Origin: Sphaerodactylus townsendi
Lineage: Eukaryota
Direction of reading: 5' to 3'
DNA length: 64,000 nt
NCBI RefSeq assembly: GCF_021028975.2
Contig: NC_059428.1
Location: 86,428,001 to 86,492,000 of the forward strand
Positions 9,103 to 58,259 of the stretch are shown here, piece after piece. The translations under genes and the position numbers were made by a program. Under the pieces are notes generated by a model. The model did not search any database, was not told where the DNA came from, and worked only from the letters and a program-made list of their open reading frames with translations. Each line of letters begins with the position of its first letter. The first letter of the stretch is position 1.

Positions 9103-10091
9103 TTTGTGGACCTGGTTCTCTGAGGAAACTCTGGATGATTTTAGGAGCTACTGCAGGGCATTTTACTTGCTAGGGCTTTTAATGGGATGTAGGATGCAGG
9201 TACTTATATGCGTGTGGGGTTTTACTGTGTTTGGATGTTTTCAGTCTGGACTTGTAAACTGCCTTGAGCCACAAAGAAAAGATGGGATATAAATATTTTA
9301 GTAAATAAATATGGTGCTGCAGTGGCTTGACCTGTCCCTCCTCTTCCAAGCAAATTCTTTCCCAAAGAAAGTTCTAGGCTGAGACAGCCTCAGCAATCTT
9401 CACGTGCTGAGAAAATTCGTAGGATTCTTTGTGAGCGTGGCCATTTTATGATCCAGCTGTACTTTGTTCATGATGATTCAGGAACATTTGTGTATGCAAG
9501 GTGTTTTATGCAGTCTCCTAGCAGCTTCAGACTACAAAGACAATGAATCATAAAAAAAAGAGAACCACACTAAAACTCAGCAGCAATAAAACCAATCAGA
9601 TAGATCAACAATAACAAGCCTGAAACACATGGGGTGATGGCTGAGGCAGACTGGATAGCTGCAGCTGTTCGTTTTTCCTTGTAGGGTTTGGCCTGACCAG
9701 TAATACATTATTGTGGTGTTACACTAATAGTATAGCGCATGTAACCAGTTCTACAAACTGAATTGAAAGGCTTGAAGGCAGCTCAGCAGGGAACAGGCTG
9801 CAGCGAGGGGGAGAGGGGAGGAAAGTCATGTTCCTTCTGCCCATGGAAACACTTCATTAGATCTAAGCTTAAATCTGGTACTTATCAACACTCTCAGATG
9901 AGAGAGAGATGGATTTTGATAGCACAAGAATGGGCATTTTAGGTTTCAGATATTTAAACTGTCCAAGAAACACAGATAGAGGAATCTCTCAAGAGTTTAT
10001 TTCCTCCATTTCTTATCTGTGAAACCCAAATTAAAGTGATATTCCAAGGTACAGACTGAGATGAGCTGCACAAAATATGCCAGTACATTAC

Positions 10092-10251
10092 CTGAATCTT
10101 GGGACAATGTTTCATTTTTTCTTCTTGTGGGATTGTGTTTGTTACCACCACTGCTTCAAAAGCTGCATTGTTGATCCGAGAAATAGCAGGGCCAGAGAAA
10201 ATCCCATGAGTAAGGATGGCATAAACCTTAGTTGCTCCTGCAGACACTAGT
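10092..10251 (-). CDS. PRPS2: PRPS2 coding exon 6 ([53 protein letters not shown])
   Basis: 160 nt; ttttatAG| acceptor and CAG|GTAATG donor; lies inside ORF 9954..10295. Confidence 0.97.
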
Positions 10252-10882
10252 CTATAAAACACAGGGTAGGAAAAACACTTGATAAACAAACTCATAATTC
10301 TAGATAGCGACTTTCAGGAACCAGCAAACCTAATTACATCCATGTTTTTATCAGTACAAAGAAAACCATTTTCAATGTAATAAAAAGTGCTGTTTCAAGA
10401 GTCTTCTGACTGGGTTGGATAACCTGCTAGGCAAATGGAACATTTTGTGATCTGTATCTTTCGGGTACTTTGAGGTACTTAAAGTTAAACTACATAAAGC
10501 TTTATAATTGTCTGTTTCATGCCATATGCACTCAAGTAAGCGAGCACTGCAATAGAAGCTGGCAAATGAAGATTGCTTCTCATCTATTCAAGTTCCTAAA
10601 GGCATCTGCAGCCTCCTCCTTTATATCCTGGTTTATTTCCACAGATGAGAGCACATCTTGATAAAACCATCAGAATATTGAATCCAAACAATACCTGGTA
10701 CAGAGTAGTGTCAGAACCACATAGAATGGACACATTCTATTTTATCAACGTTTCTATAGTTTCAACGTTTCTACAGTAAAGCTTAAAAATAATGCTTGTC
10801 TACTGTTTGAGAGTATTCTGGAACCTCCTTGTGCAAAAAGAAATTCAATGAACACAAAAACAGCTACAACTGAAATTATGTT

Positions 10883-11447
10883 TGATTGAGGATGATTGAG
10901 GGATTGGAGCACCTTCCTTATGAGGAGAGGCTGCAGCATTTGGGACTCTTTAGTTTGAAGAGGAGACATCTGAGGGGGGATATGACTGAAGTCTATAAAA
11001 TTATGCATGGAGTGGAAAATGTTGACAGAGAGAAATTTTTCTCTCTTTCTCACAATACTAGAACCAGGAGGCATACATTGAAAATGCTGGGGGGAAGAAT
11101 AAGGACTAATAAAAGGAAACATTTCTTCACACAACGCGTGATTGGTGTTTGGAATATGCTGCCACAGGAGGTGGTGATGGCCATTAACCAGGATAGCTTT
11201 AAAAGGGGCTTGGACAGATTTATGGAGGAGAAGTCGATGTATGGCTACCAATATTGATCCTCCTTGATCTCAGATTGCAAATGCCTTAGCAGACCAGGTG
11301 CTCAGGAGCAGCAGCAGCAGAAGGCCATTGCTTTCACATCCTGCACGTGAGCTCCCAAAGGCATCTGGGGGGCCACTGCGAGTAGCAGAGTGCTGGACTA
11401 GATGGACTCTGGTCTGATCCAGCAGGCTCCTTCTTATGTTCTTATGT
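10883..11447 (+). mobile_element. CR1 LINE 3' fragment (ORF2 C-terminus plus 3'UTR)
   Basis: ORF 10886..11257 with LPYEERLQHLGLFSL..LRGDM..VYKI and FFTQRV..WN.LP motifs; ends in cttatgttcttatgt repeats. Confidence 0.92.
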
Positions 11448-21471: not shown

Positions 21472-23614
<2,143 letters not shown>

Positions 23615-41904: not shown

Positions 41905-42855
41905 GTAGTCATCCTGGAGAGAAGTGAGCAGTGGGGTACCACAGGGTTCTGTCCTGGGCCCACCGCTATTCAATATCTTTATCAACAATATGGATGATGG
42001 AACAGAGGGCATACTAATCAGATTTGTAGATGACATCAAATTAGAAGGGGTAGGTAATAGCCCAGAGGACAGGGTCAGAATTCACAATGACCTAGACAGA
42101 TTAGAGAGCTGGGCCAAAACTAACAAAATGGATTTCAACAGAGATAAATGCAAGATACTACTCTGTACACTGAGGCAGAAAAATGAAATGCACAGATATA
42201 GGATGGGGGACACCTGGCTTGACATGTGAAAGGGATCTGGGAGTCTTAGTAGACCACAAACAGAACATGAGTCAGCAGTGTGATGTGGCAGCCAAGAAAT
42301 AGAACATAGTGTATAGATCGAGGGAAGTAATAGTGCCACTCTATTCTTCATTGGTCAGATCTCTCCAGGAATCCTGTGTCCAGTTCTGGGCACCACAATT
42401 CAAGAAGGATATTGACAAGCTGGAAGGGGTCCAGAATAGGATGAACCAATGGTCAAAGGTCTGCATTCCATTCCCTATGAGAAGAAACTTAGGGAGCTGG
42501 GTATGTTTATTCTGGAGAAGAGAAGGTTAAGGGGTGACATGGTAGCCATGTTTAAATTTTTGAAGGGATGTCATATTGAAGATGGATCAAACTTATTTTC
42601 TGCTGCTCCAGAGACTAGGACAAGGAGCAATTGATTCAAGGTACAGGAAAAGAGATTCCACCTAAAAGAGATTCCACCTAAAGTTCTTCCTGATGGTAAG
42701 AGTTGTTCAACAGTGGAATACACTGCTTCAGAGTGCAATGGAGTTTCTTTAAGAGGTTTTTAAACAGAGACTGGGTGTCCATCTGTCAGGAGTTCTTTGA
42801 CTGCGTATTCCTGCACAGCAGAAGGTTGGACTTGATGGTCCCTGTGTCTTTTCTA
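41905..42855 (+). mobile_element. CR1 LINE RT fragment with deletions
   Basis: [49 protein letters not shown] motifs. Confidence 0.92.
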
Positions 42856-52767: not shown

Positions 52768-54119
52768 TTATTTATTTAAAAGCATTTTAAGAGAACGTGT
52801 TAGTGTGCTTACAATAGTGGCCATGGTGGTCGAATGACGAGCCAAGAGTTTAATGCTGGAGTCGCTAGAGGTCTTACCAGACGCTGCTTCTGCAGCCTTC
52901 AGGAGACAAATGTAGTTTATTACAACCTCATCTATTTTAGCTACAATATCCTCCTGCTGTGTTTCAGAGTTCGTGATTTTAACTAAACGCATGCAGGCTT
53001 CTGTTAAGCAACAGAGTACTTGAAAGCTAGAAGTCATAGCTAGGAGCATTTCCTCAGGGCCTTTTTCAGCCATGGCCATTTTCCTGCAGGCACTTCCCAA
53101 ATGTCTTGATTCTACAGATAACAGTTGTTTGTACTGAGAAAGTTGAAGGTCAAATGTTTCTTGACAGACATCATCCCTTTTTCTCACACTGGATCGGACC
53201 AAACAGAGTAGCTCATTGGCGTCCTTTTGTGCTGCAAGAAATCCATCAGGCACTGTGTAATACTTTTCTTTCATTAAACTGAGCCTTGCAATTTGTGCAT
53301 CAAAGGACATATTGCTGGGATTCACATGAGTTTCACCGTCCTGATCTTCAGGCCTGTTCATGTTGCTTTGATTGTTTCCAATATCTTTGGGGGGTTCAAC
53401 ACTTTCTTTCCCACTTTCCTCATTTAGAGTAGAACAAACTTGACTGCATTTTTCTGCTGCTTCATGCTGTTTCTCAGGTTGATACAGGCATGAAAGCTGT
53501 GTGCTTCTGTCTTTATGTTCATCTTCTTCATCATCATCATCTTTGGCAGTTCCTCTTTTTAGAAAACAAGAGCTGAAAGGTCCATGGCATTTCCAGTTGC
53601 TAGCATCTAGTTTCCGCAAGGGTAAAGTTCTGTACTGTTTGGAATCTTTCTGGTTGGTGTTCAAGTCAGAAGACCTTTTCCTGTTCATGCTGACGTTCAC
53701 AGCATCCTGGAAATAACTTTTGGATAACATTTTGCCCAGAGGAAGCTGCCCTCTTTTTTCTAGTTTTGAGTCTTCTGCTTCACTGGTGTTCATGCACATC
53801 AAACTCACACTGGCTTTTTTCTTTCCCTCGATAAGCATCTCAGTGCCTGTAGGTTCTGCAACAACACTACTGCTACGGCGCAAAACTTTCTTCTCGTGCG
53901 GCATTCTGAGGCTTCCTCCCATCATATCATATGGCCATGAATGAACTGTTATCCCACCTGACTGGTCGACTTTGGGAGCAACAAAAGAGTCTTGATTTTG
54001 ACTTGGCACCTTTGATTCTGAGTGAATGTGGGATGATGGCATGGTGGAATCAGCTCTGCGCTGTTTAGGAAAAGCTGAAGGCATGCCTCCTCGTCTTCCA
54101 GTCACAGGCTCTGTGAAAG
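52768..54119 (-). CDS. FRMPD4: FRMPD4 terminal exon, long isoform: 450-aa extension AFTEPVTG...TRSLKMLLNK*
   Basis: A second AG 5 nt downstream puts the exon in frame with the intact ORF 52768..54216; 1350 nt without a stop in AT-rich DNA implies coding constraint. Confidence 0.8.
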
Positions 54120-54124
54120 CTACA
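54120..54124 (-). CDS. FRMPD4: FRMPD4 terminal exon, short isoform: G|TG TAG gives ...ETTV* (class I PDZ-binding C-terminus)
   Basis: Acceptor cccctAG|TGTAG; reproduces the known Preso C-terminus ETTV. Confidence 0.85.
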
Positions 54125-54597
54125 CTAGGGGTAGTAGAAGAACACAGAGAAGCATTAAGCATCAACCTCAGAACATGTGGGTGATTTGAGCATTTCAGTC
54201 TTTTATCATTAAACATTTTTTTTAAAAAAACTTACCATTGTCAACTTTCAAAGCCTTCAGAAAATGCAACCACATATAGTTCTTTCATGAGAGACAAAGT
54301 TCATTAGAGTCACTGTTGTAAATCAGTCATGTTGTTTCTTAGGATGAAGACAAATGGAACCCAAAACAAAAATTCACAGCAAATCTCCCTGTTATGCTGT
54401 ATGGCTTCCCAAAATGACTTACATACCAATAAATAGAACTAATTGTTGAGAGCCTTTCAGCTGCACTGCCCCAAGCCTTCAATCAGACTGTCTGTTTTTA
54501 ACGCTTTTAAGGTAAGTGTACATTTTATCTGTCCATTAATTTCTTCATTAATTTAAAACCTGAAACTTTTTAACCTGGCAAAATGGGATGGATAAGG

Positions 54598-54782
54598 TTT
54601 ACTTTACCCTGCCTTTCTCACCAAGAGAAACCTGAGCCAGCTTATACGGTTCTCATCTCCTACTTTTTAGGCTCATAACAACCCCGTGTGAGTGACTGGT
54701 CCAAGGTCACCGATCCATGGCAAAGTGGGGTTGAACCTGAGTCTCCCAGTCCAAAACTCTGACCAATAGCCACACTGGCTTT
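54598..54782 (-). mobile_element. Degenerate tRNA/CORE SINE
   Basis: Reverse complement has agccagtgtggc..ggttcaacccc..ggtgaccttggaccagtcac. Confidence 0.6.
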
Positions 54783-55161
54783 CTTGTAGTGGCTGATGTC
54801 ATATAGTAGTGAGTTGCCAAAAAGTCGCTACTGGGCCTGACTGAGTCATGCAAGTTGTGTGGTAGTGGTTGTTTGACCCAGTAAGTCCTCCACTCAAAGC
54901 TGGGGAAATGAGAGCAGGGGTGGCCTGGGAGGCCAAAATAGCCCTATAAAGAACCCCTCCCAGGCCTGCCTTTTACTGACAGAAACCAAGGGTTGAACAC
55001 TGGCATTATTGTGACTGCCCAGCAATCCCACAATATTCACTGAGATTTCAGTGGGTATCCATTTCTTAAAGCTATACATGCCACTTGTATTGTAACTCCT
55101 GCAATGCATTTTTTCCAGACATCAGATTTTCCTGCAAACCTGAGGCATTTGTAGAAAGATA

Positions 55162-55430
55162 ACAGAATCATGGAGTTGGAAGGGGCCATTCAGGCCATCT
55201 AGTCCAACCCCCTGCTCAATGCAGGATCAGGCTAGAGAATCCCAGACAAGTGTTTCTCCAGCTACTGCTTAAAGATCACCACTTCCCCAGGCAGCTGATT
55301 CAACTGTTGAACAACTCTAACTGTAAACTTTCCCCCCTAATATCCAGCTGGAACATTTGTCCCTGTAGTTTATGCCCATTATTGCAAGTCCTATCTTCTG
55401 TTGCCAACAGGAACAGCTCCCTGCCCTCTG
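55162..55430 (-). mobile_element. CR1 LINE 3' end fragment
   Basis: agaatcatggagttggaaggg..catctagtccaaccccctgct is the reverse complement of a CR1 3' terminus. Confidence 0.8.
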
Positions 55431-55631
55431 GCTTGTCTGTTCATGACACCTATCTCCAGATTCATGAATCCACATATGGGACCATGCTAAGAATTTCTGG
55501 ATTGGTGAGTGTGAAAAATAGTCCTAAAATTAATAATGTAACACTTGGGGTTCCTTCAAATAAATTTTATGGCTTTAAATCGCACTCTTGACTTTTATAC
55601 ATAATCAGATTAATATCTTTGACTGCCGTAC

Positions 55632-56897
55632 CTGTAGTTTCTTTAATCTTAGGAATTCTGTGACATCCGTCTCTTAAAGTGCCAAACAGAGGGTCAGCAG
55701 AATTAACCGTGGAATGCATAACAGGCACTGCCATTCTATGACACACAGTTTCAGACTGCACATGCTCCTTGTAGGTTGCTCCGTGACTGGGAAGCATAGC
55801 AGCTCTTTCATCCGCTGGAATATAGCTCATGCCTTTTACCATCACATCAGGCATAATGTGCTGAGCATCCGAGTTGCAAAGAGGGGATTCAGCCAGGGTT
55901 CCACAAGTGCTGCTGCCCGTGCTGCATCCTCCATCCACCGAAGAACACTGTGAGCTTTGTAGGGAAAAATGGCCTTCACTCTGCAACGATGACATTCGCT
56001 TAGCTAAGTGATACTCACACAATCTAGTGACACTCTGCTCTGCTTCTGGAAGCTTTGAGGAATGGTCATCTGTTAGTAAGTCAATGTTTTCAGAGTTATT
56101 TAGGTCTGTGTGTGAAGACACAGTGGGCACATCTGATATAAAGTTTTCCTCTGGCCCGTGCCCTAAAATACCATCATGGTCGGTCTCATCTTTACAATCC
56201 ATTTCTATTTTCCCAAGACTAGAAGCCCTTGGAACAGTCTTCCCATTAACTGTTTCTGAGTTTGGTTTCTCTACTGCTCCTTCATCTGAAGCAGAATACC
56301 ATCTTTGGCCATCCCTGTGAAAGGCAGTTCTCTCCACATTAAAAGTGCTTATGCGTTGACCCTCTCTTAAGGAAAGAGTGCCCATTTTGCCCTTTTGGTC
56401 ATCAGTTTCAGTTTTTTTAGTTCCCTGCTGTTTTTTCACAACAGCATTGCCATCAGGGGTTGCTTTTGCTTCCCCATCAGTAACCTTATTTTTCCGTTTA
56501 GTAGTGCAAGAATACACCACAGACCCCATATGCAGCTTGCTAAAATATTCAGTTACAGATTTTGTTTCCATAGTTTCCGGTTCCATTTCCATGTTATCTG
56601 AATGAAGAATCTGCTTTGAAGGCACAACTTTTGACTGCAGTTCAGTAACTTTCTGATTAGCTGAAGGCTGCGAGGATTTCATAAGCCCTCCAGCCTGATT
56701 CTTAGTGATGGAAAATTCGGCCTGTGGTTCCACAAGGGGTTGATAACTTTCATTTGTAGACAAAAACACACGTGTGGCATTTTCATTCAGTTTCTGTGCT
56801 GTGGCCAATTCAGAACTTTCAGTCATTTCAGAAGAGTTTGTTTCATTGCCAGAATCAGATGATGATTCAGGGCTATATGCTCTCAAGATGGCTACAC
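55632..56897 (-). CDS. FRMPD4: FRMPD4 penultimate coding exon ([13 protein letters not shown]...[11 protein letters not shown])
   Basis: 1266 nt open frame (ORF 55567..56946); ataCAG| acceptor and G|GTACGG donor. Confidence 0.92.
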
Positions 56898-57203
56898 CTG
56901 TATGCCACAAAAAATAAGAGCCAGTTAATGAAACCATATCAGGCACTTGAATAAAAATAACTAAATGGGATTTGTTAGCTTAAAAATGGACCTAAAATAT
57001 TGGTTCATATATAGCACAGTTTCCAAGAAAGGCAACTTAACATTATGGTAGTTCTATTAGATGATATGTACAAGGTGATGGGAAAAAAAAGTAGAAAGAT
57101 GGAATATTGCCCAAAGGGTGAATGGTGAAAAAGTGAATGGTAAAAAATGAATGGAATTATATGATTTTTTTTCAATGAATAAATGTAACAGTAGTGAAAG
57201 AAC

Positions 57204-58259
57204 CTGAATTGTCACTTGTCTGCTGTTCCTCTGAAGCCGCCAAGGCCTCCAGTGCTTGAAGAGTAGAAACCACAGCATCATCCAGCCTCTTTTCACATTT
57301 TTCTTCGACATGAGTTGGGACAGCATCAATGAGTGAAACAGGAATATCATCACTACCTAAGCAACTAGTTTGCTCCTTGTCTTCCCTATACTGTGCTGTA
57401 TGATTCTGAGAATCTTCTTCGTCGGAGCTATCCCTAAATCCAGGGGGAGGAGCAGCAATGGCCATGTTCAGAGAATGCAACAAAAAGTCATCTTCATTAT
57501 CATCCCCTTCTGGAGGTGGGAGTGAGGTCAGATCAATGATGTCATCACTGGACCCTGAAAGGCTGAGAAGAGCAGGCCTACTGATTTCTCCCACCATAAT
57601 GTCTTCCTCACAGCTTACTTCATCTTCATCCTCAGCATCATCTGTGTTCTCCGCATAGCAAATATCATGTAGCAAAGGCTCTTCTATTCCCTCAGCAGCT
57701 CCAAATATTTTGTTATCACTGAAGCCTGAATACACAGAATTAGCAGCAAACTGAATGCTTTCTGCATCTGGGGACAACTCCAAATCCTTAATGTCATTGG
57801 CAGGGCTCATATAAAGAGCTCTTTGCTTATCTAATGCTTCTGGGCTTTCATCCAACAGTCTCTCATAGCCAAGAGTTTGGGGATTAATGTCATCTAAACT
57901 GTGATCGCCAAATATAAAGGATACTTTTGCTGCCCTTGGAGATCCCTGTGTCTTCATGCTGGATTCCAGTCCTGAGTATGACAGCACAGACTGCTGGTTT
58001 AAACCTCTATTTTCTTCTGCCTCTGAATCATTTTGTTTAGCCTGCTGCTGATCAACCTCACTTGAATGATAAGCATTTTCTATGTATAGATGCCTGTGTT
58101 CTTTTGGGCATAAGCTGCTGTCAGAACCATCTGTAATTTTCTGCTTCGAGTCTATAAACATGTGTGTCTCCTGCTCCCCCTCTGCTGGGAAAGTTGTGGT
58201 TTTTGCTACACAGTTCCACTCAGACCTGTAGAGATTATGCTTCATCTTGGTTTCAATCC
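57204..58259 (-). CDS. FRMPD4: FRMPD4 large exon with an acidic region and Homer-ligand motif PPPGF (57436-57450)
   Basis: 1056 nt open frame (ORF 57172..58245); tttAG| acceptor and G|GTTCTT donor; phase 1/1. Confidence 0.92.

Follow-up and report, generated by a model that had tools for sequence, protein, structure and literature searches.

The last coding intron of the gecko FRMPD4 gene ends in two AGs 5 nt apart: the first gives a protein that closes with the PDZ ligand ETTV, and the second gives one that runs on for 450 residues into a predicted five-helix bundle of the talin type. The tandem acceptor itself is confirmed, both ends are likely used, and the bundle, by analogy with talin, likely binds LD-type helices; taken as a whole, we consider this account probable.

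Two readings of the last FRMPD4 intron

The window, which is the whole 64,000-nt stretch of Sphaerodactylus townsendi DNA analyzed here, contains the 3′ portion of FRMPD4, encoded on the minus strand, and the last 180 residues encoded are 100% identical to S. townsendi FRMPD4 isoform X3, a database protein. The splice region consists of the following features.

55632..56904, minus strand: penultimate exon with FRMPD4 coding sequence (5′ boundary approximate, placed by tblastn of P0215 against the window)
54125..55631, minus strand: last coding intron of FRMPD4 (donor and acceptor reading, tblastn)
54127..54162, minus strand: conserved intron end, with a pyrimidine tract and a candidate branch point near 54155
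54120..54126, minus strand: tandem acceptor, AG 54126-54125 for the short form and AG 54121-54120 for the long form
52768..52770, minus strand: long-form stop codon (frame reading)

The penultimate exon ends at 55632 with ...KIKETT and one base of a split codon, and its GT donor (55632/55631) serves both AGs, as in a tandem acceptor. When acceptor A (AG 54126-54125) is used, the exon begins at 54124 and reads a Val codon followed by a stop at 54122-54120, giving ...KIKETTV and the end of the protein. Acceptor B (AG 54121-54120) lies inside that stop codon; its exon begins at 54119 and reads ...KIKETT-A-FTE, with 450 residues beyond ETT before the stop at 52770-52768. The initial annotation had described these two outcomes of a 5-nt tandem acceptor, and its coordinates and readings were exact. 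Between 52771 and 54117 the other two frames contain 31 and 38 stops, and the probability of 449 open codons arising by chance at this composition is ∼5e-13. The two readings exclude each other, because ETT is internal in the long form and the bundle codons fall in the 3′ UTR of the short form. A class I PDZ ligand is a C-terminal [S/T]-x-hydrophobic; the short form ends in T-T-V, which is such a ligand, and the long form ends in L-N-K. Preso/FRMPD4 was reportedly shown by Lee in 2008 to bind PSD-95 through the C-terminal ETTV, and the short form described here has the identical gene and ETTV end. A third in-frame AG is present at 54110-54111, 9 nt past acceptor B (exon from 54110), and its equivalent is used by 1 of 120 database models (P0009, Phrynosoma).

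Conservation and likely use of the two forms

Neither isoform is new, and the guess that the long form had been annotated before held: the NCBI annotation of this gecko includes isoforms X1 to X3 (1765, 1760, and 1720 aa) and X4 (1316 aa), of which X1 and X4 are common to residue 1315 and then continue with A and 449 further residues (X1) or with V and a stop (X4). A long human isoform is presumably annotated as well. When the last 180 residues were searched, KIKETT was present in 97 of the 120 top hits, with A as the next residue in 94 of those 97; the remaining 23 were fragments without KIKETT. Both junctions were found in 14 sauropsid species (lizard, snake, turtle, crocodilian, and bird), which were hand-picked because both forms had already appeared in our lists and which do not constitute a survey; the chicken short form was taken from unnamed members of the chicken cluster.

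Six Logan proteins of 1312 to 1314 aa (P0262, P0270-72, P0274-75) all ended in ETTV and clustered with chicken FRMPD4. Since they are full length on contigs of 5.7 to 6.5 kb, we treated them as products of spliced transcripts. No Logan-marked protein in the cluster and hit lists examined spanned the long junction, which was seen in annotation models alone, and the short junction was seen in these six assembled transcripts. Transcript assemblies tend to retain the commoner path, which suggests that the short form leads in the Logan samples. The long form may be minor, and annotation models for it can be propagated by homology; nonetheless, both forms are likely used.

Support for the second acceptor from sequence conservation is indirect and strong. 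All 17 genomic read-through frames encode S-V-A across both AGs, as does the teleost-type frame P0132 (unnamed, resembling a named teleost protein). The ∼36 nt of intron ahead of the acceptors (12 codons' worth) read as an almost unchanged peptide when lizard-, bird-, mammal-, and teleost-type read-through frames are compared; the position near 54155 within them is, going by the consensus, what we take to be the branch point. Beyond the acceptor, the extension frame is open from gecko to manta, its indels are in frame, and its changes are conservative. Bundle identity to gecko was 80% in chicken, 78% in squirrel (in a protein with the extension that clusters with FRMPD4 despite its FRMPD3 label), 76% in coelacanth, and 67% in manta, and the constitutive upstream exon was less well kept than the bundle in both species compared (71% in chicken, 59% in coelacanth). 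The frame had been proposed to be old and under selection, and these comparisons agree. A metagenome scan for orthologous acceptor DNA returned 508 pattern matches, 0 of which were confirmed.

A predicted talin R11-like bundle and its family

The 450-residue end divides into a long linker, a short helix, and the bundle. Three basic residues, numbered as in the model, are listed with the talin positions to which they align.

53311..54119, minus strand: long-form linker of ∼270 aa, predicted disordered (pLDDT <50 over nearly all of residues 1-266)
53551..53598, minus strand: Trp/Cys/Phe motif W-x-C-x-G-P-F-S-x-C-F in the linker, conserved across homologues
53269..53304, minus strand: extra helix H0 ahead of the bundle (model helix 3-14, pLDDT >90)
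52774..53244, minus strand: predicted talin R11-like five-helix bundle (AlphaFold2 model, structural and profile matches)
53106-53104, minus strand: R69, aligned with talin K2024
53085-53083, minus strand: R76, aligned with talin K2031
52788-52786, minus strand: K175, aligned with talin K2133

We predict that the C-terminal domain of FRMPD4 is a talin-type five-helix bundle nearest to R11. The AlphaFold2 model (53 rows) gave a pLDDT of 90.9 over the last ∼160 aa and a pTM of 0.88, with five long helices preceded by a short one, in keeping with the helical C-terminus suggested by the initial annotation. The modeled bundle helices span residues 23-39, 50-80, 85-112, 116-143, and 151-179, and the first linker has 10 residues. 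Two structural papers describe the talin-type bundle as a four-helix up-down core with an N-terminal helix on a 9- to 10-residue linker (PMC2659244, PMC2887493), and in the predicted model all five helices superpose on talin structure 3dyj. The closest structure among 48,161 chains was talin R11 (Z 20.7; rmsd 1.9 Å over 156 residues), and talin bundles occupied ranks 1 to 10 throughout, R11 differing from the other talin bundles by a Z of only 2 to 3. The first ten Foldseek rows were talin as well. H0 lies ahead of the stretch that aligns with talin, whose first residue is 19-21.

Profile searches point the same way. The 53-row profile had 5 hits among PDB sequences, talin chains alone, with the best stretch in R11 (E 6e-10), and a 21-row profile in which named invertebrate FRMPDs replaced the unnamed invertebrate fragments also found talin R11 (E 1.6e-9). 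A 28-row vertebrate-only profile had 0 hits among PDB sequences at E 10, and talin was absent from a single-sequence search of the same set; the connection to talin is therefore made by the invertebrate sequences, which resemble talin more closely. Pfam talin rod matches were below the cutoff, in 11 and 10 of the 53 members. Hits in the ESM Atlas (vinculin/catenin, DLEU7, and talin rod clusters) all scored <0.9 and serve as leads only, and weak GIT1 and Nup58 rows from the PDB sequence searches (E >0.5) were rejected.

The choice posed at the outset, between a FAT fold and a talin rod, falls to the talin five-helix bundle and not to the FAT four-helix bundle. Helices 2 to 5 superpose on the four-helix bundles of FAK/Pyk2 FAT, the p130Cas C terminus, and the GIT1 paxillin-binding domain (Z 10.6 to 13.6), and FRMPD4 further resembles FAK in having a FERM C-lobe of the FAK1 Pfam type. 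However, FAT lacks the first helix, FAT rows scored well below talin R11 (Z 10.6 to 12.6 versus 20.7), no FAT-type sequence match was significant, and none of the 53 members matched Pfam Focal_AT. The five-helix topology has been called unique to talin (PMC2659244, PMC2887493), yet TLNRD1 (Z 15.1) and the Sla2 C-terminal region (Z 13.9) also match the FRMPD4 bundle, with helices 2 to 5 superposed. Compared with talin R11 (IBS2-A; 3dyj, 9qn7, and Drosophila 3fyq), the FRMPD4 domain shares the five helices, the long first linker, the profile match, and basic residues at the K2024, K2031, K2130, and K2133 positions. It differs in being single and terminal, in following ∼1000 disordered residues, in its extra N-terminal helix, in its 14% identity, in the loss of K2085, K2089, and K2119, and in being optional by splicing.

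The rest of the extension is of another kind. The whole-extension fold showed a disordered linker, in which the Cys motif had no visible packing, and linker identity to chicken was 51%, compared with 80% for the bundle. The Trp/Cys/Phe motif is kept from gecko to manta and teleosts and occurs as a variant in FRMPD3; it is unstructured in the model, and our guess is a linear motif or a lipidation site. In the disordered middle of the protein, D-L-T-x-L-P-P and a Homer-type PPPGF (57200-57600, 55900-56900) are kept as far as invertebrate FRMPDs.

A search of 1.84 billion representatives found 85 relatives, with matches nearly all at the C terminus; among them were FRMPD3, FRMPD1, and the PDZ-FERM proteins found in Saccoglossus, Patiria, and Lytechinus. 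A further search begun with an unnamed fragment led to WW-PDZ-FERM proteins of Lineus, Tubulanus, and Ruditapes. The bundle is C-terminal in FRMPD1, in FRMPD3, and in mollusc, nemertean, echinoderm, and hemichordate FRMPDs, so that the domain which the initial annotation had suspected to be shared with the FRMPD1 C terminus extends to FRMPD3 and the invertebrate proteins. A quick tree of the last 175 residues (50 rows; SH-aLRT supports only, careful search unfinished) grouped 19 unnamed fragments with named invertebrate proteins and identified the two other matches in the gecko genome as FRMPD3 and FRMPD1. FRMPD3 residues 695-1647 match a single continuous stretch of the gecko genome, and the FRMPD1 domain lies within an 824-codon open frame; both genes thus lack an intron at the matching place in this genome, and in them the same terminal domain is therefore constitutive.

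The domain is C-terminal in protostome and deuterostome proteins alike, so the ancestral end is likely that of the long form and the ETTV end likely an FRMPD4 innovation. The 450-residue reading is real, but what had been called an extension is better viewed as the form that ETTV truncates. By homology and by the model, the bundle is the long-standing domain at the C terminus of WW-PDZ-FERM (FRMPD) proteins; an FRMPD4-specific intron with an out-of-frame first acceptor would then have created the PSD-95-type ligand, and the second acceptor would keep the old domain available. A second teleost FRMPD4-like copy (P0127, P0237, P0124, P0126) is open and conserved for ∼200 codons at the intron equivalent, with 41 to 43% identity between copies and relic donor and acceptor peptides at both ends. 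This stretch looks like an intron turned coding, and the copy seems to have retained the bundle and lost the ligand; the gecko last intron showed no similarity to it. In gecko FRMPD3, a frame shift is present at the start of the bundle (L004, ∼2290-2400, in G000:C13, last exon; L002, 1923-1960). By tblastn, the change falls between penguin FRMPD3 residues 1481 and 1507, and it may be due to assembly indels or to a real lesion.

A candidate ligand face and the alternatives

In the talin R11-tensin3 complex, according to PMC12637021, the partner helix lies between helices 2 and 5 and contacts K2024, K2119, and K2133, and the K2024E+K2031E change abolishes tensin3 binding. We mapped these residues by profile (HMM) alignment to R11, with talin numbering counted by hand. 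The K2133 position was K/R in 49/53 rows, K2024 in 46/51, and K2031 in 35/53, and no basic columns of the bundle domain are better kept than those of K175 and R69. Three of the four site residues are thus basic in FRMPD4 (R/R/K); the K2119 position is Thr and was K/R in 0/53 rows, and R158, one turn away, was basic in 42/53. All 9 FRMPD1-clade rows had Q at the K2031 position. The integrin-site K2085 and K2089 positions correspond to D127 and I131 in FRMPD4, and a second (R12-like) bundle is absent, so the arrangement is not that of IBS2. Because the K2024, K2031, and K2133 positions are kept basic and the integrin lysines are lost, we favor the reading in which the helix 2-helix 5 face would act as a helix-addition groove, as in talin R11-tensin3, and take up an acidic amphipathic (LD-like) helix from a partner protein; we give this a little under an even chance. 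A strict LD motif (phi-D/E-x-phi-phi-x-x-phi) was not found after the FERM domain of FRMPD4. An amphipathic stretch at residue ∼820-840 of P0001, common to FRMPD3 and FRMPD4, is a candidate internal ligand for the bundle.

Two other uses of the bundle have to be weighed against binding in trans. It could act within the molecule, binding the FERM head as talin R9 binds F3 or having its groove filled by H0, so that the long form would be closed and the ETTV form open. A FERM head and a talin-type rod bundle do occur in a single chain, H0 is confidently placed in the model, and Foldseek ranks first the talin autoinhibition complex 4f7g (R9). Yet that match has a TM of only 0.46 and an rmsd of 6.9 Å, and both sequence and full structural alignment favor R11 over R9, which makes an intramolecular role rather unlikely. 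Alternatively, like R11, which according to PMC2659244 contains IBS2-A and, in helix 50, a cryptic vinculin site, the bundle might be an integrin- and vinculin-binding switch unfolded by force. The K2085 position is indeed K/R in 18/18 invertebrate-clade rows, but it is D/E/N in 26/26 FRMPD3/4 rows and the K2089 position is mostly I/M. The same source states that a single bundle binds integrin weakly, and a terminal domain would presumably have no second anchor for tension; we regard this role as improbable.

The long form itself can also be explained in other ways. It could be no more than a conserved 3′ UTR wrongly annotated as coding, which would fit the Logan spliced transcripts, all short-form, but the conservatively changing frame with in-frame indels, open to manta, the confident fold model, and the same domain at the true C terminus of the paralogs leave this explanation with next to no probability. 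Very improbable, too, is that most of the bundle is translated from another transcript, with its own start or a different upstream exon, and that the 5-nt acceptor is rarely used. Three observations favor it: an in-frame ATG lies ∼40 nt upstream in the intron end that many species conserve, the long junction appears in no assembled transcript seen among the Logan proteins, and five Logan frames in one cluster have a different N terminus before S-V-A. Four of these (P0092, P0348, P0350, and P0352; 464 aa) share an alternative short N terminus joined to S-V-A and the extension, which could come from a deletion in the genome, a collapsed assembly, or a further upstream exon yielding a bundle-only protein. 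However, the conservation of the ATG is explained by its overlap with the likely branch-point context; for S-V-A to be conserved both AGs are needed, and in the paralogs the domain is in cis with PDZ-FERM.

If both forms are made, their ratio would be set by competition between the neighboring AGs, with the upstream one probably ahead, and could be no more than unregulated wobble, making FRMPD4 a fixed two-product gene with no switch. We put this at not quite an even chance, and it is compatible with the readings, the old domain, and the intron-origin steps of the main account. According to PMC8055015, most tandem sites have no functional characterization and are thought to be noise, and the stronger acceptor is usually the upstream one; the same source reports raised intronic conservation near tissue-specific minor sites. 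Against wobble, the ∼36 nt of upstream intron are kept from teleost- to mammal-type frames. Frame-shifting tandem acceptors are described there as common, with minor sites mostly removed by NMD. FRMPD4 resembles these frame-shifting TASS in having acceptors a few bases apart with a shift that is not a multiple of 3, but both of its products are coding and conserved and the short-form stop falls in the apparent last exon, so that the short mRNA would escape exon-junction-dependent decay. The fullest version of our preferred account, in which FRMPD1, FRMPD3, FRMPD4, and the invertebrate ortholog are LD-helix binders built as "FERM plus one talin rod" and jawed vertebrates gained a regulated FRMPD4 switch that trades the bundle for PSD-95, is possible but somewhat doubtful.

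The R11-like domain with its kept contact residues, its presence across the family, and the exclusion of the ligand appear undescribed in the searchable literature and Pfam. A full-text literature search, which did not extend to the founding Preso papers, returned no paper on a long isoform or a talin-like domain in FRMPD1, FRMPD3, or FRMPD4, and FRMPD4 was absent from the text supplements of the TASS catalogue (9 files; larger tables may be missing). In the portions available of a 2026 FRMPD4 preprint (PMC13060437), the C-terminal region is disordered with the PDZ motif at its end, and the word isoform does not occur.

FRMPD4 is a cause of X-linked intellectual disability and epilepsy, and possibly of hearing loss, and the protein is described as a scaffold whose disordered tail closes with a PDZ ligand. 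Should the long form be produced, a second product would exist that lacks a usable PDZ ligand and carries a folded, talin R11-related interaction domain; variants in the last 450 codons would be coding rather than 3′ UTR changes, and experiments done with cDNA would have looked at a single form. If the regulated switch holds, Preso1 as studied so far would be one of two scaffolds that differ in function. For FRMPD1 and FRMPD3 there would be a domain to test, with candidate residues already named.

Elsewhere in the window, minus-strand exons at 9954-10313 and 23279-23614 belong to a phosphoribosyl pyrophosphate synthetase gene adjoining FRMPD4, PRPS-like by its motifs. Three further regions (10886-11257, 41909-42229, and ∼55170-55360) hold fragments resembling CR1-type LINE reverse transcriptase or 3′ ends, and one such CR1-like fragment lies within the last FRMPD4 intron.
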